In this document: positions 2 to 38,354 of the stretch, one piece after another
How the letters are laid out: each line of letters opens with the position of its first letter
Position numbering within the stretch: the stretch's first letter is position 1
Source: a virus
Direction: 5' to 3' (one strand)
IMG/VR virus record: IMGVR_UViG_3300045988_168232
Span: 46,269 to 110,268 of that record
DNA length: 64,000 bases
Program-made: the position numbers and the translations under genes
The notes under the pieces: generated by a model
Seen by the model: only the letters and a program-made list of their open reading frames with translations
The model's database searches: none
Told to the model about the DNA's origin: nothing

Positions 2-991
2 GGATCACAATTTGAAAAGATTATTAGAGCTATTGTCGAATCAGAGCTTTATGGGTACTCACTTATTGAGATTATGCCGGAACTAGATTCGGAAACTGGC
101 TTGCTTAAAGAAGTGAACAGTATTGAAAGACGATGCGTATTGCCTGACCAGCGTCGTGTCGTACAGCGTTGGGGACAATGGACACCGGGTTGGGATTTGG
201 ATTCTGAACAATACAAGCATAATTATATTCTCGTGAATAATGGTGGATTTGGATTATTTGCCGCAACCACTCCCAATATTCTTGCCCAAAAATATACATT
301 AAGTAATTGGGTTAATTTCAGTCACACTTATGGGCAACCGATTATTCATGGAAAGACAGGTGCCGAAGACAATGAGTCAAGAAGCAGGTTGGCACGTAAA
401 ATCGCTTCAGCAGCCCAGAATAAGGTTCTTGTAACCGGCAAAGAGGATGAGATTGACATTAAGGCTTTTACTATGTCAAACTCTGAAAAGATTTATGAGT
501 CGCTTGCGAATTATGTCAATAAGGAGAATGACAACTTAATATTAGGGTCTGAATCAATGGCTGGCGGTATGCAGTCTTATGTCGGCTCAACTAAAGCCCA
601 TGAGAACATATATCGTGCAAGAATCAATTCTTATCGTACAATTGTAGAGAATGTGATGAATGAGCAGGTGGTTCCGGTTCTCAGATATTGGGGAATAATT
701 TCAGATGATGTGTATTTCAAGTACATGACTAAGGTGGAGATGTCAGACGAGAACAAAATCAAATTGTTCGATATGCTTACCAACAAATATGAAATTGACC
801 CGGAAGAAATAAACAAAGAATGGGGTATCGAAGTCGGGCAACAACGTAACTTTGAATCCAGTAACGGTAGTGATAGCATAGGTGATTGGGGAGATGGTAA
901 TGAAGACGGTCATAGAATGAGCGATGAGGAATATTACAAACGTTATGGGCACCATAGGGATAAAGTAAATTTTCTGTCAGGGGTGCATTAA
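2..991 (+). CDS. portal protein, Mu gp29/DUF935-like; 5' end lies upstream of the window
   Basis: The frame of ORF 74..991 stays open back to nt 2 (GSQFEKIIRAIVESELYGYSLIEIMPELD...), so the gene is cut by the window edge. It lies directly upstream of a Mu-F-like gene, protease/scaffold and capsid, which is the Mu head-module order. The family call comes from gene order and recalled sequence character, not a search. Confidence 0.6.
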   Translation, partial: GSQFEKIIRAIVESELYGYSLIEIMPELDSETGLLKEVNSIERRCVLPDQRRVVQRWGQWTPGWDLDSEQYKHNYILVNNGGFGLFAATTPNILAQKYTLSNWVNFSHTYGQPIIHGKTGAEDNESRSRLARKIASAAQNKVLVTGKEDEIDIKAFTMSNSEKIYESLANYVNKENDNLILGSESMAGGMQSYVGSTKAHENIYRARINSYRTIVENVMNEQVVPVLRYWGIISDDVYFKYMTKVEMSDENKIKLFDMLTNKYEIDPEEINKEWGIEVGQQRNFESSNGSDSIGDWGDGNEDGHRMSDEEYYKRYGHHRDKVNFLSGVH

Positions 992-3645: not shown

Positions 3646-4893
3646 ATGGCAAAGCAACAAGGGTTTAAGTTTATTAAAGGTGTTTGCAGTACTGGTAGCC
3701 CGGCGGACATTTTCCTTTATACAGATGTGGACTACTGGAGTGTTGATAACTTTCTTTGGGAGTTTGATTACCTGATTAATTATGTGAATCCAAGCAAAAT
3801 AAGAATACATATCAATTCTGTAGGAGGAAGCGTTGTAGAAGGTATGAGTGTATTTGCAAAGATTCAAGATTGTGCTATACCGACAGAATGTATCAATGAT
3901 GCTTTGGCGGCTTCAATGGGGTCAATTATTTGGGCTGCTGGTGATGAACTGTATATGAAAGACTATGCGTTACTAATGATTCATAATCCATTTTGCGATG
4001 TAAATGGGAATAAACAATATGACCAAACAACAGAAGCTTTTACAATGCAATTAAAAACTATTTACATGAAACGCTTCGGACTTAGCGAAGAGGATGTGGA
4101 AAATATTATGAATGGTAAAGATGGCGAAGACGGTACATTCTTGACAGCGACCCAGGCAATTGAAAAGGGCTTTGTTAAAGCCGACCATGTTATTGAAACC
4201 CCTCAAGCCGTAAAAGACAAAATAAATGCTGCTTTAAAAAGCAGTAAGGATATAGTTCAAATTAAAGCAGTTTATGGATTGATCTCATCTACGTTACCAA
4301 CAGCTACTATTAACAAACAGAATATCAACTCAATTTTAGAAACAATGGAAAAGAACGAAATTACTGTTTTTGCCGCTCTCCTTGGATTGACAGGAGAAAA
4401 GGCAACGTCCGAAAATGTTTCTGCAAAGATTAATGAACTGAAGGCAAAAGCCGATAATGCTGATGCCCTTCAGAAATCACTTGACGAGACAAAAGGTGAG
4501 CTGACAAAAATCAATGCGGAACTTACCGGCGCAAAAACTTCAATCAAGAATTTGACTGAAGATTTGGATAAGACAAAAACGGCCCTGAAAGTATATCAGG
4601 ATGCAGAGACAAAAGCCAAAGAAGAAAGAGTTACAGCACTCATCGACAAGGCTATTGCAGAGTGTAAAATCAACAAGGAAGAACGTGAAGCCTATACCAC
4701 TATGGCCCAAAACAATTTTGAACTTGCTGAGAATGTGTTGTCAAAAATTCCGGCACGAGACAATTTGGGGCAAATCATTTCACAGGCAAATAAAGGTAAT
4801 GCAGAAAAAGGAGTTCAAACTGAACAGCAAAGGGTTTTTGCAAAGGTGGATGAGGTTGTAGGGAAAGACTTCAAATTCCGTACCCTTAGCTAA
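3646..4893 (+). CDS. prohead protease (ClpP/S14-type) fused to a coiled-coil scaffold-like C-terminal region
   Basis: ClpP signatures are present: INSVGGSV, ALAASMGS (Ser nucleophile context GxAASMG) and LMIHNP (His). Residues ~230-415 are heptad-rich in K/E/A/L. It lies directly upstream of the capsid gene. Confidence 0.75.
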   Translation: MAKQQGFKFIKGVCSTGSPADIFLYTDVDYWSVDNFLWEFDYLINYVNPSKIRIHINSVGGSVVEGMSVFAKIQDCAIPTECINDALAASMGSIIWAAGDELYMKDYALLMIHNPFCDVNGNKQYDQTTEAFTMQLKTIYMKRFGLSEEDVENIMNGKDGEDGTFLTATQAIEKGFVKADHVIETPQAVKDKINAALKSSKDIVQIKAVYGLISSTLPTATINKQNINSILETMEKNEITVFAALLGLTGEKATSENVSAKINELKAKADNADALQKSLDETKGELTKINAELTGAKTSIKNLTEDLDKTKTALKVYQDAETKAKEERVTALIDKAIAECKINKEEREAYTTMAQNNFELAENVLSKIPARDNLGQIISQANKGNAEKGVQTEQQRVFAKVDEVVGKDFKFRTLS

Positions 4894-6336: not shown

Positions 6337-7710
6337 ATGGCTACGAATACTAATTTAGGAGGTGTTTTTACCACTGATATTGATGGTAAAAAGACCAGTA
6401 ATGTGTTCCTCAGCACAGAAAATGTTGTTGGTCTTATTTTTGATACCAGTATCGTTGGTGGGCTTGAAAAAGCTCTTGGAACAGATACTGTAGCAGCTAA
6501 AGCTTTTGCAAATGGAAGTGTTGTAGAGCTTAATACTTCAAAAGATCTGAAAGAGGCTGGTATCGACGAATCTGTTTTGGCAGGTATCGCAAAATACCAT
6601 CTTGATTGTTTCTTCAGTCTTGCTGGTGGAACGCAACGTATCTTTGTTTCATTTATGAACAGTGATGATGACGCTGATTTTGAAGCTGTAGAAAAGATGC
6701 AGCTTGCATCCGGTGGCATCATTTATCAGATTGGTGTATGGACTGGAAAACCTATTGCTACTAAAAACGGTGATGATTCTTATTCGGTTGAAGCGGGCAA
6801 TATCTGTGCTAAACTTGAATCTGTTGCTGAAATTTTAGGGGGTAAGGTTGGCATAACTAACTATGAAGGTAATGCTCCATTAAACATTTTACTTAATGCG
6901 CCTATCATAGATGAGGCTGTTGTGGATTTGAAAAAACTTCCTGATCTCAGTGAGATGGATTTTCCTAAAGTAACTGTACTTGTTGGGCAAGCTCCTACTG
7001 ATACAGTTCATAAGCTTATGTATGATGTCAATCATGTAAATGACTCAACTGAATCATTTGCCCCGGTTGGATGTGTTGGTGCTGCTATTGGATGTTTAGC
7101 GGTTGCCCCGGCAAATGAAAGTATCGCTCATGTCAATGGATTTAATCTTGCCGCAGTAATGCAGGATGCAGAACTTGGTTTTGGCAATATTGTTAAAGAT
7201 GATGACAATGACGTTTATGGATCTGAATCTTCATTTACCAATATTAAAACAATTGGTTATACCAAGCGTAACACTTATCTTCACAAAAAAGGCTATGTTT
7301 TCTTGACCAATTATGACGGGCTAGAAAATAGTATTTTTTTCAGTAGCGATCAGACACTCAGTATTGGTGATTATCGTACAATCGCACGTTGTCGTGTAAT
7401 GCATAAAAGTCGTAGAGTTGTTCGTCGTGCTCTTTTGCCACGTGTAAACAGTAATGTTGAGATTGATGTAACGACAGGAAAATTGTCCGCTTCTGAAATT
7501 GCAGAATTTCAGAATATTGTGATTCAGGCGCTTGATATGAATATGGTCGAACCTGGAACATCGAAACCGCAAATTAGTGGCCGTACATGTATTATTGATG
7601 AAAATCAAGATGTGCTTAACACTGATGCGATTGATATTCATTACAGCCTCGTACCTCTTGGAGTTACCAGTGTAATCAATGTTACAGAAGGGTTCACGTC
7701 AACCATTTAA
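6337..7710 (+). CDS. tail sheath-like protein (copy 1)
   Basis: A 457-aa ORF followed by a ~166-aa tube-sized ORF, a chaperone-sized ORF and the tape measure, which is the sheath-tube-chaperone-TMP order. It is collinear with a paralogue at 9082..10365. Confidence 0.5.
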   Translation: MATNTNLGGVFTTDIDGKKTSNVFLSTENVVGLIFDTSIVGGLEKALGTDTVAAKAFANGSVVELNTSKDLKEAGIDESVLAGIAKYHLDCFFSLAGGTQRIFVSFMNSDDDADFEAVEKMQLASGGIIYQIGVWTGKPIATKNGDDSYSVEAGNICAKLESVAEILGGKVGITNYEGNAPLNILLNAPIIDEAVVDLKKLPDLSEMDFPKVTVLVGQAPTDTVHKLMYDVNHVNDSTESFAPVGCVGAAIGCLAVAPANESIAHVNGFNLAAVMQDAELGFGNIVKDDDNDVYGSESSFTNIKTIGYTKRNTYLHKKGYVFLTNYDGLENSIFFSSDQTLSIGDYRTIARCRVMHKSRRVVRRALLPRVNSNVEIDVTTGKLSASEIAEFQNIVIQALDMNMVEPGTSKPQISGRTCIIDENQDVLNTDAIDIHYSLVPLGVTSVINVTEGFTSTI

Positions 7711-9028: not shown

Positions 9029-9056
9029 TAGGGGCTATTATGGCTCCTATTTTTTA
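9029..9056 (+). terminator. rho-independent terminator-like hairpin
   Basis: TAGGGGCT / GGCTCCTA forms a stem with a 5-nt loop, followed by TTTTTT. The ATG at 9040 lies inside this hairpin. Confidence 0.5.
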
Positions 9057-9062
9057 TTCGTA

Positions 9063-9073
9063 CTATTATAAAG
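9063..9073 (+). promoter_or_regulatory. CTATTAT...AAA motif
   Basis: CTATTATAAAG lies 7 nt after terminator 9029-9056 and 19 nt upstream of ATG 9082. Confidence 0.4.
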
Positions 9074-9081
9074 AAAACAAT

Positions 9082-10365
9082 ATGGCACAACTTAGTTATA
9101 TTAACACCGGCGTTAAACAGAAACCGGATTTAACCTTTAATATTCCGACTGATGAAAGCGTCGGGGCAATGTTGTTTGATATAAGTGGATTTGATAAACC
9201 CTTTGACGATTATCCATTGCTGTATCATAATTTTAAAGATGGTAAGATTCAATGTGTAAAGAACATGGATGATGCGGTTTTATTGGGTATAGCTAATGAT
9301 GGTTTTATAAATGGTTTATTATATCATCATTTGTCTCAATTTTATGATTTTGTTGGCAGAAATCAAGCTGTATATGTGGCTATTGCTGATTGTTCAAAAG
9401 ATTGGGATATTGTTCAAAATATGCAGCAACAAGTAAGTGGAAGGGTGTTTCAAATAGGAATATGGACATCCCAACCTATATGGAGAATGAAAGATGATAA
9501 TACATTAGGTTTTACTTCTCTGATTACGGATTTACAATTACAAGCTGATGAGATTAATGGTAGGGTTGGCATATCTACGCATACTATGATACCTCTTAAT
9601 ATTATACTTTGCGGAAATAGCTACTATGTAAAAAATGGGGAAGTTAATTATAAAATTCTACCAAATGCAATTGAATTAAATTGCCCAAAGGTTTCAGTGG
9701 TGCTTGCACAAAATGGCTCTCCAGAAGCACATCTGATACAAAAAGACAATCCATTACAAGCTCCAGTAGGTTCATTAGGTTTGATTATGGCATGTTTGGC
9801 ACTTTGTGGAGCTGAAGAAAGTATTGCTTCATTGGACAAATGTGATTTGAATAAAAATGAAGGATTCAACTACCCTGAATGGGGAGTTGGAAATGACGGT
9901 ACTCCGATAGATAGTGTGCATCGTATATGGGCCAATATTATATCATCACGCGGATATATTATACCGGTTGATTACGAGGGTATAGAGGCTTCATATTTTT
10001 TTAGTAGTGACCAGACATTATGTGATGGGGATTTTAGTACGATTGCTAATAATCGGGTCATACATAAATGCAGAAGAGCTGTTTGTACGGCTCTAATACC
10101 ATATGTTAATAGTCATCATATCTATGTACCCGGAACGCATAATATCAGTTCAACATCAATCGCAATCATCACAGATTCTATTAATACTATTTTGGACTCT
10201 GTTATGAGAAATAAGCAGGGGCTTAATCAAATAGATGGCAGAGTCGTGACATTTCTGGAAAATAATGATATTTTGGAAACAGACTCTATCGCAATAAAAA
10301 TGGATATTAAACCAATTAATTATAGCGGATTTATTTCAGAAGAAGTTTCACATGATATAGGATAA
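9082..10365 (+). CDS. tail sheath-like protein (copy 2, paralogue of 6337..7710)
   Basis: Collinear similarity to copy 1: GRVFQIGIWTSQPI vs GGIIYQIGVWTGKPI, and YFFSSDQTLCDGDFSTIANNRVIHKCRRAVCTALIPYVNS vs IFFSSDQTLSIGDYRTIARCRVMHKSRRVVRRALLPRVNS. I moved the start to ATG 9082 because ATG 9040 sits inside a terminator hairpin and a CTATTAT motif lies at 9063. Confidence 0.5.
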   Translation: MAQLSYINTGVKQKPDLTFNIPTDESVGAMLFDISGFDKPFDDYPLLYHNFKDGKIQCVKNMDDAVLLGIANDGFINGLLYHHLSQFYDFVGRNQAVYVAIADCSKDWDIVQNMQQQVSGRVFQIGIWTSQPIWRMKDDNTLGFTSLITDLQLQADEINGRVGISTHTMIPLNIILCGNSYYVKNGEVNYKILPNAIELNCPKVSVVLAQNGSPEAHLIQKDNPLQAPVGSLGLIMACLALCGAEESIASLDKCDLNKNEGFNYPEWGVGNDGTPIDSVHRIWANIISSRGYIIPVDYEGIEASYFFSSDQTLCDGDFSTIANNRVIHKCRRAVCTALIPYVNSHHIYVPGTHNISSTSIAIITDSINTILDSVMRNKQGLNQIDGRVVTFLENNDILETDSIAIKMDIKPINYSGFISEEVSHDIG

Positions 10366-10459: not shown

Positions 10460-13400
10460 ATGGCAGATTATAAAGATTATATCGTCAGATATGATATCCA
10501 AGCCGACGTAACAAAAGCCGCAGAAGGACTTCAATCAATCGCAAATATTGCTAAAGAATTTGAGGTTCCAATGAGAGAACTTTCTGCTGCAATCAAACAA
10601 GTAAGCCAGTCGGCATTTCAGTTAAAACAAAACGCAAATATTTCTTTTACGCCTAAAATTGATGTCGGGGCATTCAACAACCAATTACGAAATATGGTTG
10701 TGCAAGTCAGAAGTGCCGCAACCGAAATGCACGCTGCGATATTCGAGGCACTATCTGGAAATGCGCCTGCAACAAAGGCAATGCAAAAAGGCATTGGAAC
10801 AGCTCTTAAAAGCAATAAATCCATTAGTGACTTAAAAAGCGACATAGCTGCTTACAATAAAGAGCTTGATAAACTTTTAGGCACGCCTATTACTAAAAAA
10901 GGAAAGACGATAAGAAATAGGGATGGCGCAATTCAAATGGCTAAAAATGCCAAAATGGATGACCGTGTTATCGAACTGGAGTCTCGTAAGCAAATGCTCC
11001 AGAAGCTTATCAAGCAGAGAAGGGCAGATCTTGCACTTGCTGAACAACTTGAAAAAGAGATTTCTTCTAAACAAGTTAAGACTGATTCCAAAGCTAAATC
11101 ACCAGCAAAAGAGACCACAGTATTAGGCACACAACCAGCTAAACTTACAAATGTCACGCCGGCTGTTATCAGAGAGTGGAAAAAAGTGTTTGGAGATGCT
11201 AAAAGCAAATCTTTGACAGTTAATATCAAAGGGAATGCAGGAGGCGCGAACGGTGCATTAACAATCATCAAACAGATACAATCCTCATTAGAGGCATTGC
11301 AGACAATGGGCACATTCAATATCAATCCGGTATTGAACATAGAGGCTTTTGCTGCTGCTGAAACTCAACTTAAAAGACTTGCGGCATTAAGTTCTTCCGT
11401 TACAGCCCCTTTTATCGCAAAAGACGAAAATGCACAAGGAGCAAAATTAGGTAGCCCAACAACGTCACTGACAAAAGATGAAAAGAACAAACTCTCTGAG
11501 GCAAAGAGGCAGATTAAAACATGGAATGAAAAGATAGCTGGTGTTCAGTCCAGACTTCATGCGAATAAAGAAAAATATGAGCAAGCACCCACTCCAGGAT
11601 TAAAAGGACAGATAACACGTGATACAAAAACGCTTGAAAAATATCAAGTCAATAGAGCGGCGCAAGAAGATGTTGTAAAAAGTCTTCAAGGCAAAACCGC
11701 TACTGCTGTTCAATCCGCTACCAAAGGGGTGAAACCGTTATCCATTGATATTATAGGGAACTTAAAGGGGGTTAATGTCACTGGAAAAACACCTGTAGTG
11801 CCCATAATTGGAGAGCTTACAAAAATACAGGGTAAGATTACCGAAACCATCCCGGTCAATGTTAAAATTATGGCTGATCAGGTGGCTGCATCCATTAAGT
11901 CTATACCCACTCCAACATTAAATGTCAATGTACGCCTGAATACAGAGGGGATTGCGCAACAGTTGCAGACAGTTGCTGCAAAACCAAAATCAGTAACAAA
12001 ACCTGAGACCAAAACGGAAACCGTTCCTGTGAAAGGAATTGGTGCTAAATCTAAAACACAGTTTCCTAAAAGTACAACTTTAATAACAGGTGATATTGAT
12101 ACTAAAAATATCGTCAACCAAATAAAAAATATTCCACGTCAAATGATTCCGATAGCGGTAAAATTGATGTGGGAAAAAGGTGCTGTTGGCAGACAAGAGC
12201 AATTGAAAAATCTTGCAACTAAAATTCCACCTGTAACAATTGCTCTTGATACCAAAGCAGCTATTGCAAAATTTGAAGAATTTATAGCCCTTATTAAATC
12301 AAACAGCATTCAAAACATACAAATTACTGCAAGCGGTAATACCTCAAATGCAATTACAAAGGCGGTCACTTCTGCATCAGCATCTTCTACATCGGTTATT
12401 GCCGGTGGAAACAATAATGTTACTGCAAAAAACAAATCTCTGACAGCACAAGACAGGTATGCAAAATTAAAAGAGAATGCTGTAAAAAATGCAGAAAAAG
12501 CCAAAGCCGGTGGAAAGCAAATGGTTCTGAAAGGGCAAGAGGTTAGAGCCAAAGAACAAGCATGGTATGCTCAACAGCAAGCTATGTACAATCGTTTATT
12601 TGAGGCTGTTCCTAAACCTGATTACGGGTGGTTACAACGACAAGAAACACAAAGAGCTTCAGAATTGCTCAAAATGCGTGAAGATGCAACCGCTGCATTT
12701 GCTAATCCGACACCTTTTGAACGAAAGGAAGCGGCATCTCATAAAGAAACAGTTTCAAGTAGTATAACCAGACACCAGCAAAAAGCTGAAAGACTTAGAG
12801 CGCAAGCTTATAATTCAATGTTGCCGTTTGCTCAAAACAAAGAGCAGGCAAATATGATGGCTAAGCACCGCAAATATTTTAGACAGGCTGTTACAACTAC
12901 TGGCATTACACCTACACAAGGAATGGACGCATCTCAAATGCTGAAATACTTACAAGGCGTATCAAGTCAAATGCAGTCATCCAGTGTAGCTGTTCCATGG
13001 CAATTGCAAAATCAAATAAATAAACTGGAAGGGCAGATTGCAAAATCAAAAGGTATTATGAGTGGCGGTTCTACGCATAGAACTTCTGTAACACCGGTTA
13101 ATAGTCAAAAAACATTTTTTGACCAGTCTCGTAAATGGGCTTATCCGTTTACTGGGCAAACTTCATTCGGTGCCCGTACCCCTATGGCTGTAGATATGGC
13201 TAAAGGTGCAGGTGTGATGTTTGCTGTTGGAGGTGCTATGTCCGCAATAAGTGGGGCATTCAACGAAGCTGTAGAGTATCAAAATACCATGCGTACAACA
13301 CAGTCTATTCTTAAACATGGTACAGATTCATATACTAAAGACTCGTTTAAGAATATGGAGCGTACAGTGCGTGACGTAGGTGTAAAAACCAAGTTCTCAT

Positions 13401-25676: not shown

Positions 25677-26483
25677 ATGGCAACAGAAATTACAATGGAA
25701 ACCGACTGGGGAGCGAAAGGCGCTCAGTTGACTGGAGCACAGGTTCAAGCGTTCATAAAAGAACAATTGAAGTCTTTGCATGAAAAGGACACTTCACTTC
25801 AGAATCAAATTAACAATTCAGAGCCTCGGTTGCAGGCTGCAACAGATGGCTGTTTTGTCACTTATCATCGTAAAAGTGACAATTGGCCTTTAGCTGTTCC
25901 ATATTGGAAATGGCCGGATTTGGAAAAAGCAGGAGAAAAAGCTGATGGAGTACTTGTATTGATTGACGGACAAGCACCTATTATTGTTTCTCCAACTGGT
26001 ACTCAGCTTAAATGGTCCAAGAATGCTGTAGCTGTTAATACTAATGTTGGTAGCGATTACAGTAAAGCTTATGTCGATTACACTGGTAAAACTCGGACCG
26101 CTGCTATCATAGCAAAAGGTACAGAATTGTTTGGTGATAATAAAAGTGAATGGAATCAGTATGCGCCGGCGTGGTGTAATGCTTATGACCGTTCCTATGA
26201 TAAGGGCGATGAAGCACATACTAAAATCGGTATTGGCGCAGGACAATGGTGGTTGCCATCTATTGCAGAGTTGATCATCATCTGGAAACACAAGTATGCA
26301 ATCAATCAATGTCTCTCAGTCATTTCGGGCGCCAGCCCGCTTGTTGAGAGTTGGCATTGGAGTTCTACTGAGCACTCGGCGACGTACGCTTGGTACTTGA
26401 ACCTGTACGACGGCAACCTCGGCAGCTGGTACACTAAGGTGTCGCTCAGCGGCTATGTGCGTGCCGTGGCAGCATTTCATTAA
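25677..26483 (+). CDS. DGR target (variable) protein, DUF1566/C-type-lectin-fold-like C-terminus
   Basis: The C-terminal WWLPSIAELIIIW...WHWSSTEHSATYAWYLNLYDGNLGSWYTKVSLSGYVRAVAAFH contains the VR. The VR ends 5 nt before the stop codon. The gene lies among tail-fibre genes. Confidence 0.85.
   Translation: MATEITMETDWGAKGAQLTGAQVQAFIKEQLKSLHEKDTSLQNQINNSEPRLQAATDGCFVTYHRKSDNWPLAVPYWKWPDLEKAGEKADGVLVLIDGQAPIIVSPTGTQLKWSKNAVAVNTNVGSDYSKAYVDYTGKTRTAAIIAKGTELFGDNKSEWNQYAPAWCNAYDRSYDKGDEAHTKIGIGAGQWWLPSIAELIIIWKHKYAINQCLSVISGASPLVESWHWSSTEHSATYAWYLNLYDGNLGSWYTKVSLSGYVRAVAAFH
26367..26478 (+). repeat. DGR variable repeat (VR)
   Basis: A 112-nt match to TR 27245..27356 with 12 mismatches, every one at a TR adenine. 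The 3' 25 nt (TATGTGCGTGCCGTGGCAGCATTTC) are identical in both copies. Confidence 0.92.
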
Positions 26484-26491
26484 CCCTTTAT

Positions 26492-26560
26492 CCCTTCAAC
26501 CCTTTAACTCTTCGGAGCGAAGCGACGTGCGAGCAACGCGAGCATAAAAGGGTTGAAGGG
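26492..26560 (+). promoter_or_regulatory. long inverted repeat 14 nt downstream of the VR (possible DGR target-recognition hairpin/cruciform)
   Basis: CCCTTCAACCCTTT (26492-26505) pairs perfectly with AAAGGGTTGAAGGG (26547-26560). An inner hairpin CTTCG-GAG-CGAAG lies at 26510-26522. Confidence 0.5.
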
Positions 26561-26744
26561 GTAGTATATATTCAACTTATCACAAGAGACGTCGCCTTTT
26601 GGAAGGTTCAGTATGGTTCCAACCTCTTGTATAAAATGAGTATATATGGAATGTTAAATCAAGGGTTGGTAATTTGATGATAATCAGTGTTTTGTAGTTA
26701 AGAGAATTGATGAAAGCAGTGTTTAAATAAAAAGAGAAGTTGTT

Positions 26745-27125
26745 ATGGCTTTATCCAACGAATTACCGGTTTATATAGATACATATCATTACATTCAAGC
26801 AGTACTCGATACTCACAAAAATTTCCCAAGAGATATCAAACATACAGTTGGGCAGGAATGGATTAGAAGAGTAATTACGCTCCCTACTTTTATAGTACGG
26901 GCAAATATGTTCAAAAGTGAACGTGAAGCGTATCTTACTGATTTCATTTGTGAATTTGAGTTCTGCAAATTGATAGTTCGTTTAGCTGGTGAAAATCATT
27001 GGATAAGCCGTAAGCAACAATCTCACCTTATGTATTTGGAGGCGGCTGTCGGCAAACAAGTGACAGCATGGAAGAACGCATCAAAAGCAAAATATCGGAA
27101 ACGTATTAATGAAGCCGAAAAATAG
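26745..27125 (+). CDS. avd: DGR accessory variability determinant (Avd)
   Basis: A 126-aa basic helical protein. LPVYIDTYHYIQAVLDTHKNFPRDIKHTVGQEWIRR fits the Avd/four-helix-bundle family pattern. It sits in the canonical avd-TR-RT position. Confidence 0.75.
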   Translation: MALSNELPVYIDTYHYIQAVLDTHKNFPRDIKHTVGQEWIRRVITLPTFIVRANMFKSEREAYLTDFICEFEFCKLIVRLAGENHWISRKQQSHLMYLEAAVGKQVTAWKNASKAKYRKRINEAEK

Positions 27126-27244
27126 TAATTGATGCAACGCACGGAGTATGGAAGTTTACGGATGACCATAGAGTTTGCGCTTCCGTGAGAAATGGGGGTA
27201 CTACTGCCATTATGTAGTTAAGGATAAGAAAATGTACCCGATAC

Positions 27245-27356
27245 ACTGAGAACTCGGCGACGAACGCTTGGAACTTGAACCTGAACGACGGCAACCTCAA
27301 CAACTGGAACACTAAGGTGTCGAACAGCAACTATGTGCGTGCCGTGGCAGCATTTC
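27245..27356 (+). repeat. DGR template repeat (TR)
   Basis: A noncoding 112-nt copy of the VR containing 11 in-frame AAC codons. It lies between avd and the RT gene and is GC-rich relative to its surroundings. Confidence 0.92.
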
Positions 27357-27427
27357 TCCGAAAGGTAATTTTGCGAATAAGTAATTGTAGTACAATATAA
27401 AATAAGTATTATCACATTAGTGCTGAT

Positions 27428-28759
27428 ATGGTGACGTATGAGGATTTGGTAGAGGCCTATTATGATTGTCGTGTACATAAGTCGCGGACAAACAACTGCA
27501 TTAAGTTTACTCTTGATGTAGAGGGTAATCTATATGATATGATGCAAGCCATCAACAATAGAACCTACCAGCCTAAACGCTCCATTTGCTTTGTCGTTAG
27601 TCGCCCCAAATACCGTGAGGTGTTCGCTGCTGATTTTGCAGACCGAATCGTGCATCATTACATCAGGTTACGGTTAGAACCGATTATTGAGCAAAAATTT
27701 AATGATAGGACATTTAATTGTAGAAACGGAAAAGGCACATTGGCTGGAGTTACACAGTTGAAGCACGATATGATTGAATGTTCTCATAATTATACAACAG
27801 ACTGTTATGTAGCAACAGTGGACATCAACAGTTTCTTTATGTCTATCCCTAAAAAACTTGTTGAAAATTTAGTTATTCAACTTGTGAAGGACAAATATGA
27901 TGGCGATGACAAAGAGGACTTAATTTATTTATGCCACGTTGTATTAAGCCATAGCCCGGAGGACAATTGCATCAAACATTCATCAGACGAAATGTGGACG
28001 CATCTACCGTCCAGCAAATCATTGTTTACTAACGGAAAGGGGCTGGGTATGCCAATTGGTAATCTGCCATCTCAGATGTTTGCTAATTACTTATTAAATG
28101 AAGTTGATTGGGCTATTGAAACGGATTGTGGTATTAAATATCACGGACGCTATGTGGATGATATTTATCTTGTTGCAGAAACAAAAGAACAAATCCTAAA
28201 CGCCATTCCAATCATCAGGACACGCTTGGAATCATTAGGGCTTAAATTATCTCCAAATAAATTTTATATACAACATTACAGCAAAGGTATAGATTTTACC
28301 GGTGCTATAGTAAAACCTGGAAGGGTCTATCCTTTGAATCGGACTGTCACTTCATTCAGACACAGTATTGACAGACTCAACCAGTGTAAAACCAAATCTC
28401 AGATAATAAAAGCATTGTATTCCGTAAATAGCTATTTAGGGCTAATGAGACAATATAATAGCTATGCTATCAGATATAATGCCCTACATGAAATAGATAA
28501 AAGATTGTATAAATGGATATATATTAAAGGCAATATGGAAGTAGTTGCCCTGAAAAGAAAATATCATCCTAAAACACGTATAAATTATAGATTATCACAT
28601 GGGCTTAATCACAAATTGTCATTACCAAGACCTATAGCTGATTTTGAAGAAAGAGAAGATAGAACAAAATATATCAGACTATTGGCTGAGTACACTTCAG
28701 TCGATATTTTCCCAATAAGTGAACTTAAAGAGAGAGCAAGACTATTATCTAATATATAA
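27428..28759 (+). CDS. DGR reverse transcriptase
   Basis: RT motifs are present: PKYREVFAADFADRIVHH, VDINSFFMSI and the YVDD catalytic box (HGRYVDDIYLVAE). The DGR-clade signature (I/L)GxxxSQ appears as PIGNLPSQ. Confidence 0.92.
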   Translation: MVTYEDLVEAYYDCRVHKSRTNNCIKFTLDVEGNLYDMMQAINNRTYQPKRSICFVVSRPKYREVFAADFADRIVHHYIRLRLEPIIEQKFNDRTFNCRNGKGTLAGVTQLKHDMIECSHNYTTDCYVATVDINSFFMSIPKKLVENLVIQLVKDKYDGDDKEDLIYLCHVVLSHSPEDNCIKHSSDEMWTHLPSSKSLFTNGKGLGMPIGNLPSQMFANYLLNEVDWAIETDCGIKYHGRYVDDIYLVAETKEQILNAIPIIRTRLESLGLKLSPNKFYIQHYSKGIDFTGAIVKPGRVYPLNRTVTSFRHSIDRLNQCKTKSQIIKALYSVNSYLGLMRQYNSYAIRYNALHEIDKRLYKWIYIKGNMEVVALKRKYHPKTRINYRLSHGLNHKLSLPRPIADFEEREDRTKYIRLLAEYTSVDIFPISELKERARLLSNI

Positions 28760-31593: not shown

Positions 31594-31857
31594 ATGAAGA
31601 TTTATAATTTTGGCAATGATTATGCCTTTCAGCAAAAACAAAAATTAGAACAGGAAGCACCAAAAATGAATCCAAGTTCTGAAAACAAAGTAAAAGAGGA
31701 ATCCAATGTTGAAAATCAAAATTCAGATGCCGGACTCGACAATGTGCCAGCTATCATTAAAGAGGATGACAAACAAATCCAGGTGTCGGAAACCGCAAAA
31801 AAGAAAAAAGAAGCGGGGACCAAAGGTTGGAAAAAGCAAGAGGGTAGTCAAGTTTAA
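31594..31857 (+). CDS. hypothetical low-complexity protein; overlaps 31706..32167
   Basis: An 87-aa ORF. Its 3' part runs through AAAAAAGAAAAAAG (31797-31810) and overlaps the next ORF, which is in the +1 frame. Confidence 0.4.
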   Translation: MKIYNFGNDYAFQQKQKLEQEAPKMNPSSENKVKEESNVENQNSDAGLDNVPAIIKEDDKQIQVSETAKKKKEAGTKGWKKQEGSQV

Positions 31858-32167
31858 TGAAACTGCTGTGGGGCATTTTCTTTATGTCTATGCTCCTATT
31901 CAGTATCATCTGCTGATGGAATACTGTAAGGCAATTAAGCAAGTAGAAAGAGGGCAGCGTATCAAATATAATATAATTGAAGCAATAGCTATTAACAGTG
32001 ATAACGCTGCTTTCAAAACAGCACGTTTCAGACGAGCGCTGATAGCTTATCGGAGATTCGGTACTCGTCCGTTAAGAAAAACCGGTTGGTCTTTAAGGGA
32101 CGCTGTTTATTATGCAAAGAACAGTTATCATATTCATGAGGCAGTAAAAAATGAAGGTACATTATGA
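31706..32167 (+). CDS. hypothetical protein; true N-terminus uncertain
   Basis: Only the part downstream of ~31800 (KKRGPKVGKSKRVVKFNETAVGHFLYVY...) looks protein-like. The upstream part overlaps ORF 31594 out of frame. Confidence 0.4.
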   Translation: MLKIKIQMPDSTMCQLSLKRMTNKSRCRKPQKRKKKRGPKVGKSKRVVKFNETAVGHFLYVYAPIQYHLLMEYCKAIKQVERGQRIKYNIIEAIAINSDNAAFKTARFRRALIAYRRFGTRPLRKTGWSLRDAVYYAKNSYHIHEAVKNEGTL

Positions 32168-32319
32168 TGCGCTTCCTTCTGTTTGTTGTATGATAATTCC
32201 ATAAAGAGTATTGCTTCCAAAAATACGATTAAGGTTGAAGATATCTTTCAAAGGACTGACAATAAGCAAATAAAAAACAAAAAATCCATTGTTCTTGTGG
32301 AATGACGATTTTTTTTGCA

Positions 32320-32327
32320 TATATTTG
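32320..32327 (+). promoter_or_regulatory. Bacteroidota-type -7 promoter box (TAnnTTTG)
   Basis: TATATTTG lies 29 nt upstream of ATG 32356. No clean -33 TTTG was found at the expected spacing. Confidence 0.4.
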
Positions 32328-32355
32328 AAGTTGCTTAAAAAATGAACAAAAGAAT

Positions 32356-33603
32356 ATGACAGCAATAGTAGGAGTATTGAATAAACATGCTGTGGCAATA
32401 GCGGCAGACAGTGCAGTCACAATGGGGAACACTCACAAAGTGGTCAACAGTGCGAATAAGATTTTCACGCTGTCGAAGTATCATCCTGTAGCAGTGATGA
32501 CATACAGTAGTGCCTCTTTTATGGGTGTACCATGGGATATTATCATTAAAGAATACAGAAAGCAGTTAAAAAATAAGTGTTTTGCAAAACTTGAATATTA
32601 TGTGGGTGATTTTATGAAATATCTGCATAAAGAACATTTCTTTTGTGATAAAAAAACTCAAGAAACATATTTGCAATGGATGTTGGAATCCTTTTTTGAT
32701 ATTTGTTGTAATGAGATTTGTAATGAAAATCATATAGATAAAAGTGCTTTGGATGATACACTGATTGAACAAAAATTAGCGGATTGTATTAAAATATATA
32801 AAGCAGCCGATAAATGTCCTGATTTTGATTCGTATTCATTGGTGGACTTTAAAAAATATGCAGAAACAGCTATACAAAATTTTGCGAATGAAAAGAGTTT
32901 TGTAAATGTTGATTTATTGTCAGAGTCTTTCTTCTACTATTTGTCGGTTAAAATACTTACTTATTCCTATACAGGTTTGGTTTTTGTTGGTTATGGTGAG
33001 AAAGAAATATATCCATCACTTATTCCTGTGAATATCTCTTCATTAGTTGTTGATGGACATTTAAAATATTTTATTGATCAGACTAATGTTGCTAAAATTT
33101 CAGAACATGGTTCTTGGGCTGTGATAAGTCCTTTTGCACAAGTTGATGTCGTTCAAACCATAATTAGAGGAATCAATCCAAGTTTTCAAGATATAATTTA
33201 TAATGTTATAGGAAAATCTATTGAATCTTATACAGATGCAATTACAGGTATTCTTGATAAGGATCCATCCACAATATCGGTATCAACAGCTATAAAGGGA
33301 TTGGATAAGCAATCTGTAATCAAAGGTATTGCAACCCAAATAAACAAAGAGATGTTTAATTTGTATTCAAAGCCATTGATTGATACGGTGGCACATTTAG
33401 ATAAAGAAGATATGGCAAACATGGCTGAAAGTTTTATATCTCTTACATCATTGGTTCGTAGAATGCAACCTGGAGAAGAAACAGTAGGAGGTCCAGTGGA
33501 TGTGGCTGTTATTTCAAAAGGTGATGGTTTTGTTTGGATTAATAGAAAGCACTATTTTAAGCCTGAGTTGAATACTTCATTTTTTAGTAATTATTTTAAG
33601 TAA
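32356..33603 (+). CDS. proteasome-beta/HslV-like Ntn-hydrolase homologue with a large internal insertion
   Basis: The N-terminus M-TAIVGVLNKHAVAIAADSAVTMGNTHKVVNSANKI parallels HslV [34 protein letters not shown] (Thr1, Asp17, Lys~33). The C-terminal VGGPVDVAVISKGDGFVW parallels the proteasome SGG.v.v.vi.kdG strand. At 415 aa it is about twice the length of HslV. Confidence 0.45.
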   Translation: MTAIVGVLNKHAVAIAADSAVTMGNTHKVVNSANKIFTLSKYHPVAVMTYSSASFMGVPWDIIIKEYRKQLKNKCFAKLEYYVGDFMKYLHKEHFFCDKKTQETYLQWMLESFFDICCNEICNENHIDKSALDDTLIEQKLADCIKIYKAADKCPDFDSYSLVDFKKYAETAIQNFANEKSFVNVDLLSESFFYYLSVKILTYSYTGLVFVGYGEKEIYPSLIPVNISSLVVDGHLKYFIDQTNVAKISEHGSWAVISPFAQVDVVQTIIRGINPSFQDIIYNVIGKSIESYTDAITGILDKDPSTISVSTAIKGLDKQSVIKGIATQINKEMFNLYSKPLIDTVAHLDKEDMANMAESFISLTSLVRRMQPGEETVGGPVDVAVISKGDGFVWINRKHYFKPELNTSFFSNYFK

Positions 33604-33617
33604 GGAAGGAGCTTGTT

Positions 33618-33809
33618 ATGTATGGAACAATGACTTGCGGTTTATGCCCAGATTCAAAATTGGAAGGAACCCTATTGACAAAAGAGCAGATTGAAGAAAT
33701 TTCGACTCGCATATCCAGGAATGTTTCCGAAAATGTATCAAAACAATTGGAAGAAGCTATTTCTGCTTTATCTTCCAAAAAGACAGATAAGGAAACAAAG
33801 AAAAAATAA
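33618..33809 (+). CDS. small hypothetical protein
   Basis: A 63-aa ORF 15 nt after the protease-like gene. GGAAGGAG lies just upstream of its ATG. Confidence 0.4.
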   Translation: MYGTMTCGLCPDSKLEGTLLTKEQIEEISTRISRNVSENVSKQLEEAISALSSKKTDKETKKK

Positions 33810-33819
33810 ATTATTTTAA

Positions 33820-33856
33820 AAAAGTCCGCCTCGCATTGTTATTTTGGCGGACTTTT
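33820..33856. terminator. bidirectional rho-independent terminator between convergent genes
   Basis: AAAAGTCCGCC (33820-33830) pairs with GGCGGACTTTT (33846-33856). It is flanked by an A-run on one side and a T-run on the other. Confidence 0.7.
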
Positions 33857-33908
33857 TTGCGATTGATTTATTAGTAACGTATTAGCCAATATACTTTATA
33901 TTATTGAT

Positions 33909-34157
33909 TTAGAATTTTTTCATTTTTGAAAATGTTGCATTGAAAATAACTTTAGCTTCTGGGCCGCCGTTAATTTTAGTTCCACATGGTACGCTGTGTA
34001 AATTTGAAAAGCCAGGATTATACCATTTCTTCTGAGCAGCATGTATGTCTGTATCTACACCAATGAAAAATTGATGAAATTGGGGTGATTCTCCAACATT
34101 ATGTGAACATATTAAATGATATTTCCATTCTGATGGTTTAATAATAGCACCACACAA
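33909..34157 (-). CDS. small C2H2-like Zn-finger protein (copy B); start codon uncertain
   Basis: Contains KCRLCGAIIKPSEWKYHLICSH (C-x2-C-x11-H-x4-H). There is no in-frame ATG: the ORF track start is TTG, and the frame is open upstream to 34196. Confidence 0.4.
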   Translation of the reverse strand: MCGAIIKPSEWKYHLICSHNVGESPQFHQFFIGVDTDIHAAQKKWYNPGFSNLHSVPCGTKINGGPEAKVIFNATFSKMKKF

Positions 34158-34390: not shown

Positions 34391-34768
34391 TTAACTCCAA
34401 AACAATTTAATTTTTGCTATTTTCGAAGGTTTAATTTCGAATATCGCATGAGTGAATGGTTTTGAATTAAAACCATCGTGTAGGCAACCTGCTTGTCCTG
34501 TTTCTCTTATTTTTCCCCTTTCATCATAAATAGCATAATCCAATGCAACCCATGAATCTGAACTTTCAGTACGATGGATTTCAAACGCAATGGTCAGTTG
34601 TCCGTATGTATCAATATAAAATCCCAAATTCTTAATTTTGGATTTTACTATTTCTTCTCTTGAATTATCGTATTCTGTAATTGATAAGAAAAAATCATCC
34701 GTCTGAACATCATTCATTTTTTTATTCCATTTACAGGAAACAGATGTTATATGGTTGTTGTTCATCAC
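34391..34768 (-). CDS. hypothetical protein
   Basis: A 125-aa ORF in the minus-strand accessory block. Confidence 0.5.
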   Translation of the reverse strand: MMNNNHITSVSCKWNKKMNDVQTDDFFLSITEYDNSREEIVKSKIKNLGFYIDTYGQLTIAFEIHRTESSDSWVALDYAIYDERGKIRETGQAGCLHDGFNSKPFTHAIFEIKPSKIAKIKLFWS

Positions 34769-35727: not shown

Positions 35728-36195
35728 TTACTTATTACAATTTTTCCAGAAACGGCTGGTGATATTCCTTAAAACATATCCATCCACTTTATAGAGACGC
35801 TGGTTGGTTTTAGGGGAGGTCAGACCGCCCAATTTCTTTATGTATGGACCCAATTTTAGGTAATCGAAATTCTTGTATTCAGCAAAAATAGAAAACCACT
35901 CCTGACCACTGTACCAGCCAATTTTTAAATGAGGATAAGACTGCCGGATATGCCCAGCAAGTCTATTAATTTCATCTGGCTCAATATCTCCACCCATAAA
36001 ACATACGCATGTAATACCTGTATTCTTCTCTATAAGCAGGTTTAGTGACGATTCAGTTAATGGTTCTCCAATATCTTTCCATAAATGCTGGCTATGACAC
36101 CCCTCGCATCTTATCGGGCAATTAGATATATTAATTGCCAACGTCACTTCATCGGGGACTTCTGCAAATACTATTCGTGTATCAACGTATTTCAT
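35728..36195 (-). CDS. nrdG: anaerobic ribonucleotide reductase activating protein (radical SAM)
   Basis: Contains the CPIRCEGCHS (CxxxCxxC) cluster motif. It is 155 aa and overlaps the nrdD stop by 4 nt. Confidence 0.85.
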   Translation of the reverse strand: MKYVDTRIVFAEVPDEVTLAINISNCPIRCEGCHSQHLWKDIGEPLTESSLNLLIEKNTGITCVCFMGGDIEPDEINRLAGHIRQSYPHLKIGWYSGQEWFSIFAEYKNFDYLKLGPYIKKLGGLTSPKTNQRLYKVDGYVLRNITSRFWKNCNK

Positions 36196-38354
36196 TGTAT
36201 CTGCTCCTTTCCGTTGCTATAAACTCGTTTAGCAGCTTCTACCTGGCGGTCTTGGCCAAAGGTTTTAATGGGGCGTAAATAGCCGATGACCCTTGTGTAC
36301 TGAGTGATATGCAAACCTCCGCATTTGGGACACACAATAATCGGTTTCTTAATGATATGACCACAATCTTCACATTTGCTGTTCGGAACATTGAACGTGA
36401 AATAACTGGTACCGTTCTCAATGGCAAAGTCAATCAGCTTCAGATATTGTTCTTTGCTAAGGTGATCTTCCAAATTGATATGAGCGGCAGAACCTCCATC
36501 AGTATATTGATAAGTCTGTCGGCCATGCAGAATAAATTTGTCCAATACAGAGGTGTCATCGTGGGCATTATAGAAATAACTGTTATACAGGTTCTCGTCT
36601 TCGGGTACCCAATAACCGTCTTCTTTATCCCAGTTGTAGTTCTTACCGCCTAATCCTTCTGCTGGAACAACCTCACTGTTAAACAAGAAAGGCCGTTTGC
36701 GGTCGTGAACGGAATACAGTTTATTTTGCTCCTTAATCGTGCCCAATATTAATTGTAAGAATCGGATGTATTCAGGATTGTTAGACACTTGCATACCTAA
36801 GAAACGGGCTGCCTCATTCAAACCATTAATGCCTATGGTGCTATATAGTTTGGACATATAGATATAGCCGCCATTGGAAGCAGCAAACATACCTTGCTCC
36901 TCCAAGTCATACAACATTGTCTTAAATGCAATATGATATTTATACACCCTTTTTAGGATCTCTACAAGATAATCTTTAATGAAAGAAGTGTTTTCCACCC
37001 AACCTCCATGAAGACCGTATGCTTTTACACAGTCTTGGATAATCCTATTGATATTCAAGGTAATCACATTGCAACTTCCTGTCATAACGCCTGTAAGACC
37101 AGATGTAGGACTGAAGGTGTTTTCTGACACCTCATTCCTAAGTCGACAACAACTTGCAAGGCTATCTGCACTATCGGAAATATATGTAAAAAACGAATGT
37201 CCTTCTGCATACATCTCGGCGCACAATTGCTTGTAGTCTTGGTCAACGATGTCTTTTCCATCGTGTACCATCGCGAAGGTCTCTACGGGGAAAGTCAATA
37301 CTTGCTTCAGGCGTATTTGGTTAAACCACTTCATAAAAAGTCGTTGCAAGGTATCAATCGCTTCCCATTCAGGTTTAGAAGCATCTGGGTAGCAAAAGTT
37401 CTTGAACAACGAATGGAAATATGTCTGGTCGTAGTAAGAGATGTTAGTGAATGGGCTTTGATAACTACGGTTGCCTGCCGGTTGATTCACACCCCACACA
37501 AATTGTTTGAACGCTTTTAGAATACTGTCCTTGACTGTACGTTGGATTTTACAATGAGAAGTAGATACTATACAGTCCAATTTCTCATACCACAACGGAC
37601 CAAATTCCATCACAGCATAGTAATTGAGGGCAATAAAGTACTCGCCAAATGCTACAGCTCCTTTGCATTGTGATGAAAGCAAAAAAGCAAGATTGGTAAT
37701 CTGCCCACTGAATGATTGTAAGTCGTTAGGTTCACTGGGAGTTACGCCATCAATATTACCCACACCTTCCGTCATCAAAGGATAAAGTGATACCGCTTGA
37801 CAATAGAACTTGGTGGTAGGTACGCTAGCCTCGTCATGTGTGTATATAATATGATGATTGAGGTCTTTTTCATATTGTTCAGCAACCTTTGGATAGAGTT
37901 TTTGCAATTCATTTTTCATACGCTGCCGTTGGATTAAACGGTTGGTGGTTTTATACACCTCACCTTCCAAATTGGCTACATTCTTCATGGTCACATTGGC
38001 ATTGCCATCGGTTTCTGAAGATGTGGCGGCATTATCTGAAGAATTACTATATCGGTCCATATAATCAATGCGCTCACGGATAAAGCGTGCCTCTTGATGT
38101 TGTTGGCGGTACAAGATAAATGCCTTAGCCACATCACAGTGGCCGGACTGCATTAGCGACCTTTCTACCATGTCTTGTATTTTTTCCACTGAAATCGGAT
38201 TCTCTAACATAGCACAATCCAGCCACATCTTCACTTCTGTTACAATGGTATCGTCATACTCAACGCCTTGGCTTTCAAACGCCTTTCTGACAGCTGTTTC
38301 AATTTTGTTCAGGTCAAAATCCATCAATTGACCATTCCTCTTTAGTACTTTCAT
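36192..38354 (-). CDS. nrdD: anaerobic (class III) ribonucleoside-triphosphate reductase
   Basis: It has an N-terminal ATP-cone-like region (VLKRNGQLMDFDLNKI) and a C-terminal Zn ribbon (CEDCGH...CPKCGG). The glycyl-radical motif TRVIGYLRP is present. Length is 720 aa. Confidence 0.9.
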   Translation of the reverse strand: MKVLKRNGQLMDFDLNKIETAVRKAFESQGVEYDDTIVTEVKMWLDCAMLENPISVEKIQDMVERSLMQSGHCDVAKAFILYRQQHQEARFIRERIDYMDRYSNSSDNAATSSETDGNANVTMKNVANLEGEVYKTTNRLIQRQRMKNELQKLYPKVAEQYEKDLNHHIIYTHDEASVPTTKFYCQAVSLYPLMTEGVGNIDGVTPSEPNDLQSFSGQITNLAFLLSSQCKGAVAFGEYFIALNYYAVMEFGPLWYEKLDCIVSTSHCKIQRTVKDSILKAFKQFVWGVNQPAGNRSYQSPFTNISYYDQTYFHSLFKNFCYPDASKPEWEAIDTLQRLFMKWFNQIRLKQVLTFPVETFAMVHDGKDIVDQDYKQLCAEMYAEGHSFFTYISDSADSLASCCRLRNEVSENTFSPTSGLTGVMTGSCNVITLNINRIIQDCVKAYGLHGGWVENTSFIKDYLVEILKRVYKYHIAFKTMLYDLEEQGMFAASNGGYIYMSKLYSTIGINGLNEAARFLGMQVSNNPEYIRFLQLILGTIKEQNKLYSVHDRKRPFLFNSEVVPAEGLGGKNYNWDKEDGYWVPEDENLYNSYFYNAHDDTSVLDKFILHGRQTYQYTDGGSAAHINLEDHLSKEQYLKLIDFAIENGTSYFTFNVPNSKCEDCGHIIKKPIIVCPKCGGLHITQYTRVIGYLRPIKTFGQDRQVEAAKRVYSNGKEQIQ

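Follow-up and report, generated by a model that had tools for sequence, protein, structure and literature searches.

A proteasome-like threonine hydrolase, most probably of the PMI-4 family, and its small conserved partner in an optional cassette of a Bacteroidales phage

We describe a two-gene cassette in a stretch of 64,000 nucleotides (nt) of viral DNA, called the window here (IMG/VR virus record IMGVR_UViG_3300045988_168232, positions 46,269 to 110,268). Its first gene encodes a 415-amino-acid (aa) protein that is predicted to have the fold of a proteasome beta subunit, extended by two helical insertions. Its second gene encodes a 63-aa protein whose place behind the first is conserved across phyla. 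Proteasome-fold enzymes are the textbook self-compartmentalising degradation machines; the family to which the larger protein belongs keeps their catalytic centre yet decorates the surfaces that form rings. What is new is the conserved small partner and the behaviour of the family as a swappable cassette at genomic hotspots. Together these give a first testable functional context to a family whose describers reported none. The explanation that we favour, if only by a little over even chances, is that a PMI-4-type threonine hydrolase that does not assemble into rings works with a regulatory partner, and that the two travel in a mobile cassette related to genetic conflict.

A reading of the window made from the letters only, here the sequence-only reading, had taken the larger gene for a homologue of proteasome beta and HslV, with a Met-Thr start and counterparts of Asp17 and Lys33. 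It had also named, beforehand, the conservation of the catalytic Thr and Lys among homologues as a check. The open reading frame (ORF) is confirmed and the residues are conserved. In the ORF list of the window the protein begins with MTAIVGVLNKHAVAIAADSAVTMGNTHKVVNSANKIF, and since in this list an ORF always begins with the earliest start codon that follows a stop, an upstream in-frame start is impossible and Met-Thr is the first start available. Thr2, Asp18 and Lys35 are the equivalents of proteasome Thr1, Asp17 and Lys33. HMMER aligns residues 2-46 with residues 1-44 of the Thermoplasma beta subunit, which places Asp18 and Lys35 on its Glu17 and Lys33. Across 146 representatives with a pairwise identity of at most 50%, Thr2 is kept in 141 (97%) and replaced by Ser in 3, and Asp18, Ser19 and Lys35 are found in every sequence (146/146, 100%). 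Lys65, Gly212, Gly214, Gln262, Val377, Asp382, Gly391 and Lys398 are further invariant positions of this alignment. The Met-Thr start itself is present in 135 of 150 family representatives. The family consensus HPVGIM puts a Gly at query position 46, in the region of the oxyanion-hole Gly47, where the window protein has Ala46.

At the other end of the protein the sequence-only reading had seen a proteasome-like GG...kdG strand. The C-terminal region contains ETVGGPVDVAVISKGDGFVWINRKHYF, and residues 371-395 (GGPVDVAVISKGDGFVW) do align with GGMIDVAVITRKDGYV of Thermoplasma beta. With hhalign, the family profile sets GGPVDVAVISKGDGFVWI on GGMIDVAVITRKDGYVQL of the same subunit (E=3.6e-5), a short local match to a single reference sequence; a single HslV sequence gave a short local match at E=0.031. 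Searches of PDB sequences with phmmer and with profiles reached Thermoplasma beta at both termini with borderline E values of ~0.008-1. The Pfam Proteasome model (PF00227) scored 17.6 bits, below its gathering cut-off of 22.4 (E=0.0032, residues 2-42 only). It reached E<0.01 in 14 of 100 diverse relatives, and every other Pfam family matched at most one relative. PHROG 5990, to which no function is assigned in that database, matched at E=2.5e-96, and none of Pfam, NCBIfam and PADLOC offers a model of the family itself. Each of these sequence-level tests is weak, yet all of them point in the same direction, towards a proteasome-like protein. Matches of the helical insertion to cullin and coiled-coil sequences in PDB were set aside as spurious.

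Structure prediction settles the fold. An AlphaFold2 (AF2) model built on a 135-sequence alignment of diverse representatives reached a predicted local distance difference test score (pLDDT) of 96 and a predicted template modelling score (pTM) of 0.92, and it shows the alpha-beta-beta-alpha sandwich of a proteasome-beta-like N-terminal nucleophile (Ntn) hydrolase. An earlier model, made from 24 mostly close sequences, had a poor core (pLDDT 70), and its Foldseek matches to the proteasome family were not significant. With the final model, Foldseek returned 44 PDB matches at E<=1e-3, all of them 20S proteasome beta subunits, with a probability of 1.00 and spanning the whole query. The best was 8u7u_K (E=4.5e-5), and the Thermoplasma beta subunit aligned with a target-normalised TM score of 0.58-0.59. 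Anbu came next after the 44 beta subunits (E=1.1e-3), and the top match in BFVD was a phage 'proteasome beta type-2 subunit' (E=4.1e-6, target-normalised TM score 0.70). Thus the homology to Ntn hydrolases of the proteasome-beta/HslV kind that had been proposed from the sequence was upheld, and we regard the fold and the family assignment as very probable.

The best structural matches, 20S beta (Thermoplasma acidophilum, PDB 1PMA/6BDF) and Anbu, also show where the protein departs from its relatives. With 20S beta it shares the N-terminal Thr nucleophile, the Asp17 and Lys33 equivalents and a near-identical S9/S10 strand pair, GGxIDVAVIxKDG. Unlike 20S beta, it carries about 200 additional residues as two helical insertions on the surfaces that form rings, and unlike 20S systems it comes without alpha subunit, propeptide or unfoldase. 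The sequence-only reading had put the extra length at ~200 aa, which stands; the single insertion that it had assumed is in fact two, one of four helices behind H2 and one between H3 and H4 (Table 1). In the AF2 model only short loops connect the strands at residues 29-31, 36-38 and 45-51, leaving no S3/S4 insertion. Insertions at the H1/H2 pore-loop and H3/H4 ring-ring sites have been argued to clash with the assembly of rings and double rings (PMC8665760). Because the insertions of the window protein occupy these assembly sites, the earlier suggestion of a self-compartmentalising protease is unlikely. Neither an AAA+ unfoldase nor an alpha-type subunit was seen in the neighbourhoods covered, and the ORF list shows no second proteasome-like gene in the cassette.

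The insertions also point to a family. Fuchs, Alva and Lupas (2021, Bioinformatics 37:4694; PMC8665760) described 22 new families of proteasome homologues, among them PMI-4, the 'Proteasome homologue with Multiple Insertions, variant 4'. In PMI-4 the H1/H2 pair is followed by a long insertion, a second insertion separates H3 from H4, and the chain lacks a propeptide (PMC8665760). PMI-4 was the commonest PMI type, with 501 nr90 sequences in 2020, from Proteobacteria, Firmicutes, Actinobacteria, Bacteroidetes, the PVC group (Planctomycetes, Verrucomicrobia, Chlamydiae), Cyanobacteria and other bacteria, and it was also ticked for Euryarchaeota and phages (PMC8665760). Its describers found no genomic context or co-occurrence that hinted at a function (PMC8665760). 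The window protein and PMI-4 have in common the Thr1/Asp17/Lys33 core, the missing propeptide, the same two insertion sites and a broad spread that includes phages. PMI-3, the sole other type with both insertions, is rare and is not found in Bacteroidetes, Firmicutes or phages (PMC8665760), and PMI-5, PMI-6 and connectase have an S3/S4 insertion, which the window protein lacks. Because insertion sites and taxonomic spread fit the published description, the 415-aa protein most probably belongs to PMI-4 (family representative HDY66466.1), an assignment made on the strength of that description. The gene is a further member of a family catalogued in 2021, phages included, and its novelty is modest; the sequence-only reading, which knew of no characterised phage-borne homologue of such architecture, had overstated the case. 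What the window family shows beyond the PMI-4 report is a small partner downstream and recurring positions of the moron or mobile-element kind. PPH and AAH of the same catalogue, and PHROG 1040, are likewise proteasome-fold genes spread by tailed phages and prophages. PPH (~140 aa) and AAH, however, are compact group I proteins (HslV/BPH-like) without insertions, whereas the window protein is of the group II type, with large helical insertions and a separate PHROG (5990).

This family is large. A HMMER scan of 1.84 billion cluster representatives gave 5025 matches at E<=1e-3, counted as clusters at 50% identity, and 2145 at E<=1e-30; nearly all are 400-440 aa long, with the alignment beginning at residue 1. 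In a scan of genomes, bacterial relatives were found in Bacteroidota, Planctomycetota, Nitrospirota, Acidobacteriota, Firmicutes, Proteobacteria, Spirochaetes and Saccharibacteria, and archaeal ones in ANME-1, Methanosarcinales, Woesearchaeota and Hydrothermarchaeota. Among the relatives in phage records are those of Porphyromonas, Providencia, Stenotrophomonas and Streptococcus phages and satellites; megablast of the cassette itself against GenBank phages gave no match.

The small ORF that follows the protease gene, which the sequence-only reading had called a partner, proved to be real. Of 75 non-redundant loci, drawn from phages, genomes and metagenomes, 62 have a same-strand ORF of 40-100 aa whose start lies -26 to +70 nt from where the family gene stops (those found encode 42-90 aa). 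A stricter test found a small ORF directly behind the family gene in 55 of 72 loci (76%), against 91 of 573 controls (16%; Fisher p=2e-25), the controls being other genes of at least 150 aa within those loci. In the phage lineage the ratio of non-synonymous to synonymous substitution rates (dN/dS) is 0.125 for the partner, which indicates purifying selection, and 0.13-0.18 for the protease gene. Purifying selection and positional conservation across phyla together exclude a chance ORF. That protease and partner belong to one operon we consider probable, with good confidence.

The partner proteins themselves are diverse. They fall into subfamilies of 16, 9 and 7 members and some smaller ones. 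The subfamily of the window's partner is joined to the largest one by hhalign (E=1.4e-5), and a third aligns in register (E ~0.009). What joins them is an amphipathic helix at the C-terminus, such as EIsEvVSDkLIevIKrQFE, and from these alignments this helix appears to be all that is conserved in the partner. A search with a profile of partners of the Bacteroidales type found 138 clusters, all of 43-97 aa and all hypothetical, many of which share contigs with protease homologues. Partner ORFs are often left unannotated, as in Stenotrophomonas phage BUCT708 and Escherichia coli ETEC-2265.

The pair occupies a slot whose content varies from phage to phage. In blastn comparisons homology to sister phages ends at 32153-32169 and restarts at 33911 in one of them (contig L099) or at 34501 in another (L098). 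The cassette is present in 7 of the 22 IMG/VR contigs that have the same flanking backbone. In L099 the same slot (11425-12422 of that contig) holds a toxin-antitoxin-like pair, a protein with a SocA/Panacea antitoxin domain (Pfam E=6e-22) and then a 150-aa ORF. In L098 (11346-12870) it holds three unrelated ORFs, with weak PADLOC candidate matches to PD-T4-10_A and PDC-M64C, and in more distant relatives it is almost empty. The cassette is thus optional in the phage lineage: it is autonomous, mobile and dispensable. The self-contained, moron-like unit that had been proposed from the letters is borne out by the boundaries with sister phages, by its presence in some contigs of this set, by the partner ORF and by the hairpin that closes it.

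Folded as positions 33810-33865, that hairpin has a predicted stability of -20.3 kcal/mol (z = -5.1), and none of 200 shuffles was as stable. The small ORF stops on one side of it (33809), and a convergent minus-strand ORF stops on the other (33909). Because the GC core of the hairpin (GUCCGCC/GGCGGAC) is flanked by A6 and U6 (T6 in DNA), it could act both ways, and a bidirectional terminator, as first proposed, is plausible. A consensus terminator scan missed it because the loop is 15 nt long. The promoter fared less well. A candidate Bacteroidota -7 box does lie where the sequence-only reading had placed it, within a 188-nt gap; the idea that the cassette is driven by a host promoter draws support only from this position, as the window holds 80 copies of TAnnTTTG where shuffled sequence would give 82.9. 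By itself this motif, which is not enriched, was rejected as promoter evidence.

To the right of the hairpin, an 82-aa minus-strand ORF (33909-34157, TTG start) matches the C-terminal half of an intact, CxxC-rich 150-aa ORF in L099 (12434-12886). By this similarity, it probably represents the truncated remains of such an ORF at the right-hand border of the slot. The ~530 nt from the hairpin to the next called gene (34391) otherwise hold no called gene.

Around its homologues the pair keeps changing company. The 135 nearest flanking genes match 138 Pfam families, none of which recurs in more than 3 loci, and a conserved large neighbour was not found among these nearest genes. The protease-partner pair appears autonomous because no other neighbour is conserved. 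The sequence-only reading had proposed a survey of homologues and their neighbourhoods; once run, it showed a conserved small partner amid heterogeneous larger genes. In Klebsiella and Stenotrophomonas phages homologues adjoin holin and lysozyme genes, and in a Providencia phage the homologue lies between Q/methylase genes and the holin. In Streptococcus prophages and satellites homologue and partner are the last genes; other sites are a Mu-like prophage and the ends of prophages in Bacteroidales. In E. coli ETEC-2265 (NZ_CP023346.1) a 427-aa homologue, WP_000123148.1, annotated as 'hypothetical protein' (contig L120, 5919-7375), lies on the opposite strand in a lambdoid prophage, with antiterminator Q on one side and genes for a methylase, tRNA and lysis on the other, which is the classical moron or stx site. 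An unannotated 49-aa ORF begins 24 nt downstream of it. By blastn this homologue was matched in 9 of 5426 complete E. coli genomes. A Streptococcus-type integrative and conjugative element (ICE) from gut metagenomes carries another homologue as cargo (L014-L017, 7637-16729). There, an XRE-type helix-turn-helix (HTH) gene overlaps the start of the homologue by 17 nt, and downstream of the small ORF come genes for an M78 (ImmA/IrrE) peptidase, an HTH-S24 (UmuD-type) protein, a Y-family polymerase, an SMC_N/AAA_21 ATPase and AbiH, so that stress and defence cargo is dense in this region of the ICE.

To explain these results we propose the following mechanism. The protease gene and the small ORF, with a product of ~45-90 aa, would be co-transcribed and probably translationally coupled. 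Thr as second residue permits removal of the initiator Met by methionine aminopeptidase, and this removal would expose Thr1 of the Thr/Asp/Lys centre. The two helical insertions would form an extra helical module on the sites through which proteasome rings make contact. The enzyme would then be a monomer or a small oligomer with no degradation chamber and with a narrow range of substrates, set by the helical module; such a non-ring, specific peptidase seems to us about evenly balanced between right and wrong. The conserved helix of the partner would dock on that module. Through its variable N-terminal part, the partner may act as an inhibitor or regulator, as a sensor or as a dedicated substrate.

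What the pair is for is a more tentative matter. We envision a role in genetic conflict, through exclusion of competing phages or elements, abortive infection or addiction of the toxin-antitoxin kind. Such a role is suggested because the two genes are autonomous, spread patchily as if by horizontal transfer, sit at moron or hotspot sites and are interchanged with the Panacea pair; we take it as a possibility that falls clearly short of even chances. Virion assembly or general proteostasis would not be its function, in our cautious view. A broader proposal is that PMI-4-type hydrolases with their fast-evolving partners make up a widespread two-gene conflict system that has so far escaped notice in bacteria, archaea and their mobile elements, with the protease as effector or sensor. 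The protease would act in phage exclusion or abortive infection and would be restrained or targeted by the small protein. This broader proposal we find rather doubtful.

Several points count against the PMI-4-type hydrolase with a regulatory partner in a conflict cassette. Neither protein matched any model of PADLOC-DB v2.0.0 at E<=1. Many genes flanking the homologues are housekeeping genes, and matches to defence models among the neighbours are few and mixed, which does not amount to an enrichment in defence islands. Biochemical or genetic data on any family member were not found in the literature. Unlike in 20S beta, the positions of Ser129 and Ser169 are not Ser: their equivalents seem to be replaced, with the invariant Gln262 and Val377 at or near these positions, and catalytic details may therefore differ. 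That the C-terminal helix of the partner might dock on the helical module is conjecture on our part, and the basis of the PMI-4 assignment in a published description belongs in the same account. In addition, our literature search found no functional study of a proteasome-fold defence or toxin-antitoxin system and no later functional work on the families of 2021.

The cassette could instead be a weapon against the host, as the sequence-only reading had suggested. It would be a counter-defence or host-takeover protease that is made during infection and cleaves a host immune or regulatory protein, with the small ORF product as its specificity adaptor. A large phage without an integrase seen in the window, intact catalytic residues and a dispensable cassette, as is often the case for anti-defence genes, all agree with this. 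However, most relatives reside in cellular genomes of bacteria and archaea, others lie in prophages at positions and in orientations typical of lysogen morons, in satellites or in ICE cargo, where an anti-host weapon is less expected than in the early regions of lytic phages, and a sister phage fills the same slot with the toxin-antitoxin-like Panacea pair; we judge such a weapon unlikely. No better and no worse do we rate a pure toxin-antitoxin addiction module, in which a Thr-protease toxin is restrained by a labile small helical protein and stabilises the element that carries it. The compact, autonomous two-gene operon, whose genes lie -26 to +40 nt apart, the patchy, transfer-like distribution in variable contexts, the fast evolution of the partner and the exchange of the cassette for a Panacea-domain pair in a sister phage would all be expected of such a module. 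On the other hand, the small ORF was not detected in about a quarter of the loci, a Pfam scan found no DNA-binding or autoregulatory domain in either protein, and a search of the literature found no toxin-antitoxin toxin with a proteasome fold. To our knowledge, no protease of this fold acts as such a toxin.

Two further alternatives look to relatives of known activity. Connectase (DUF2121), an archaeal ligase (PDB 6ZVZ), resembles the window protein in being probably non-ring and in having a helical insertion that is thought to provide specificity instead of a compartment. The window protein might thus be a sequence-specific transpeptidase or ligase, its helical insertions giving specificity and the small ORF product being processed or ligated as the substrate. 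Connectase demonstrates specific ligation by a proteasome homologue that is monomeric and carries a helical insertion (PMC8665760), the insertions of the window protein probably preclude rings, as judged from the model, and a dedicated small co-encoded protein is conserved. Yet the architecture differs: connectase has its insertion at S3/S4 and lacks H1/H2, whereas the window protein keeps H1/H2, has no S3/S4 insertion and is extended at H1/H2 and H3/H4. Connectase also occurs only in methanogens and is not encoded together with a small partner, the partner subfamilies share no conserved motif of a cleavage type, and PDB connectase is absent from the top 50 Foldseek matches. Ligation is quite improbable on these grounds. 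The least probable alternative is an HslV-like ring protease for housekeeping or stress, borrowing a host AAA+ unfoldase to deal with misfolded proteins during infection. HslV (ClpQ) and the window protein do share a Met-Thr start without propeptide and a weak N-terminal profile similarity, seen with PHROG 1040, 'peptidase HslV family' (E=3.7e-4), and with the NCBIfam HslV models (E=0.009). The NCBIfam scores, however, are far under their cut-offs (NF003964, 15.6 vs 137 bits; TIGR03692, 13.1 vs 157.75). HslV has ~175 aa and HslU as its partner, whereas the window protein, with 415 aa, is more than twice as long, its insertions lie at assembly interfaces, and no AAA+ partner of the HslU type was seen among the neighbours. 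A dispensable cassette with a patchy distribution also argues against a housekeeping enzyme.

The family, to which no function is assigned, counts about 5000 clusters at 50% identity and extends from bacteria and archaea to phages, satellites and ICEs. If the conflict-related reading of the PMI-4-type pair were true, proteasome-fold enzymes would be a new enzymatic class in prokaryotic immunity or toxin-antitoxin biology. Like connectase, the family might also supply a sequence-specific peptidase or ligase as a tool. For annotation, the gene can be labelled 'proteasome-like Ntn hydrolase, PMI-4 family', and the small ORF merits calling.

Table 1. Features of the cassette (positions in the window) and of the predicted structure of the 415-aa protein (residue numbers)
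Feature	Position	Strand	Basis
Variable accessory slot holding the whole cassette	32170..33910	.	blastn against sister phages
TATATTTG, candidate Bacteroidota -7 promoter box, 29 nt before ATG	32320-32327	+	sequence; position only
415-aa proteasome-beta-like Ntn (Thr1) hydrolase, PMI-4-type	32356..33603	+	ORF call, conservation, AF2/Foldseek
Shine-Dalgarno-like GGAAGGAG, candidate	33604..33611	+	read from sequence, upstream of small ORF start
63-aa small partner protein, C-terminal amphipathic helix EQIEEISTRISRNVSENVSKQLEEAISAL	33618..33809	+	ORF list, enrichment, hhalign, dN/dS
Hairpin AAAAAAGUCCGCC-(15 nt)-GGCGGACUUUUUU, probable bidirectional intrinsic terminator	33818..33858	.	RNA folding
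S1-S4	residues 4-51		AF2 secondary structure
H1, H2	residues 60-92 (H2 = 79-92)		AF2 secondary structure
Insertion 1, four helices	residues 99-197, between H2 and core strand 205-212		AF2 secondary structure
Core strands	residues 205-260		AF2 secondary structure
H3	residues 263-300		AF2 secondary structure
Insertion 2, helices	residues 304-346, between H3 and H4		AF2 secondary structure
H4	residues 350-370		AF2 secondary structure
S9, S10	residues 381-396		AF2 secondary structure
H5	residues 407-413		AF2 secondary structure

The phage that carries the cassette is a Bacteroidales gut myophage of roughly 110 kb, with the slot between a block of tail genes and a diversity-generating retroelement (DGR) on one side and a convergent nrdDG block on the other. 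Its tail sheath and baseplate hub genes are myovirus-like, and related genomes measure ~106-115 kb. The head-maturation protease of this phage is encoded at 3646-4893 and coincidentally also has 415 aa. The same identity was rejected for the cassette gene: the phage has its own enzyme, and the cassette is missing in close sister phages. Two separate genes show similarity to tail sheath (6337-7710 and 9040-10365), and nrdD and nrdG, for anaerobic ribonucleotide reductase, are encoded on the minus strand (35728-38354).

Just upstream of the cassette region, the DGR (25677-28759) is made up of a putative target gene (25677-26483) whose product has a C-type-lectin-like Lcl_C domain, a gene for the accessory protein bAvd (26745-27125) and one for a reverse transcriptase (27428-28759); Pfam marks for these genes were taken from an identical contig (L010). 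Between the DGR and the slot, two plus-strand ORFs of 87 aa (31594-31857) and 153 aa (31706-32167) overlap in different frames, and both are conserved in sister phages. Gene callers keep the 87-aa ORF and merely the last 83 codons of the 153-aa one. The product of the 87-aa ORF is rich in Lys and Glu and of low complexity.

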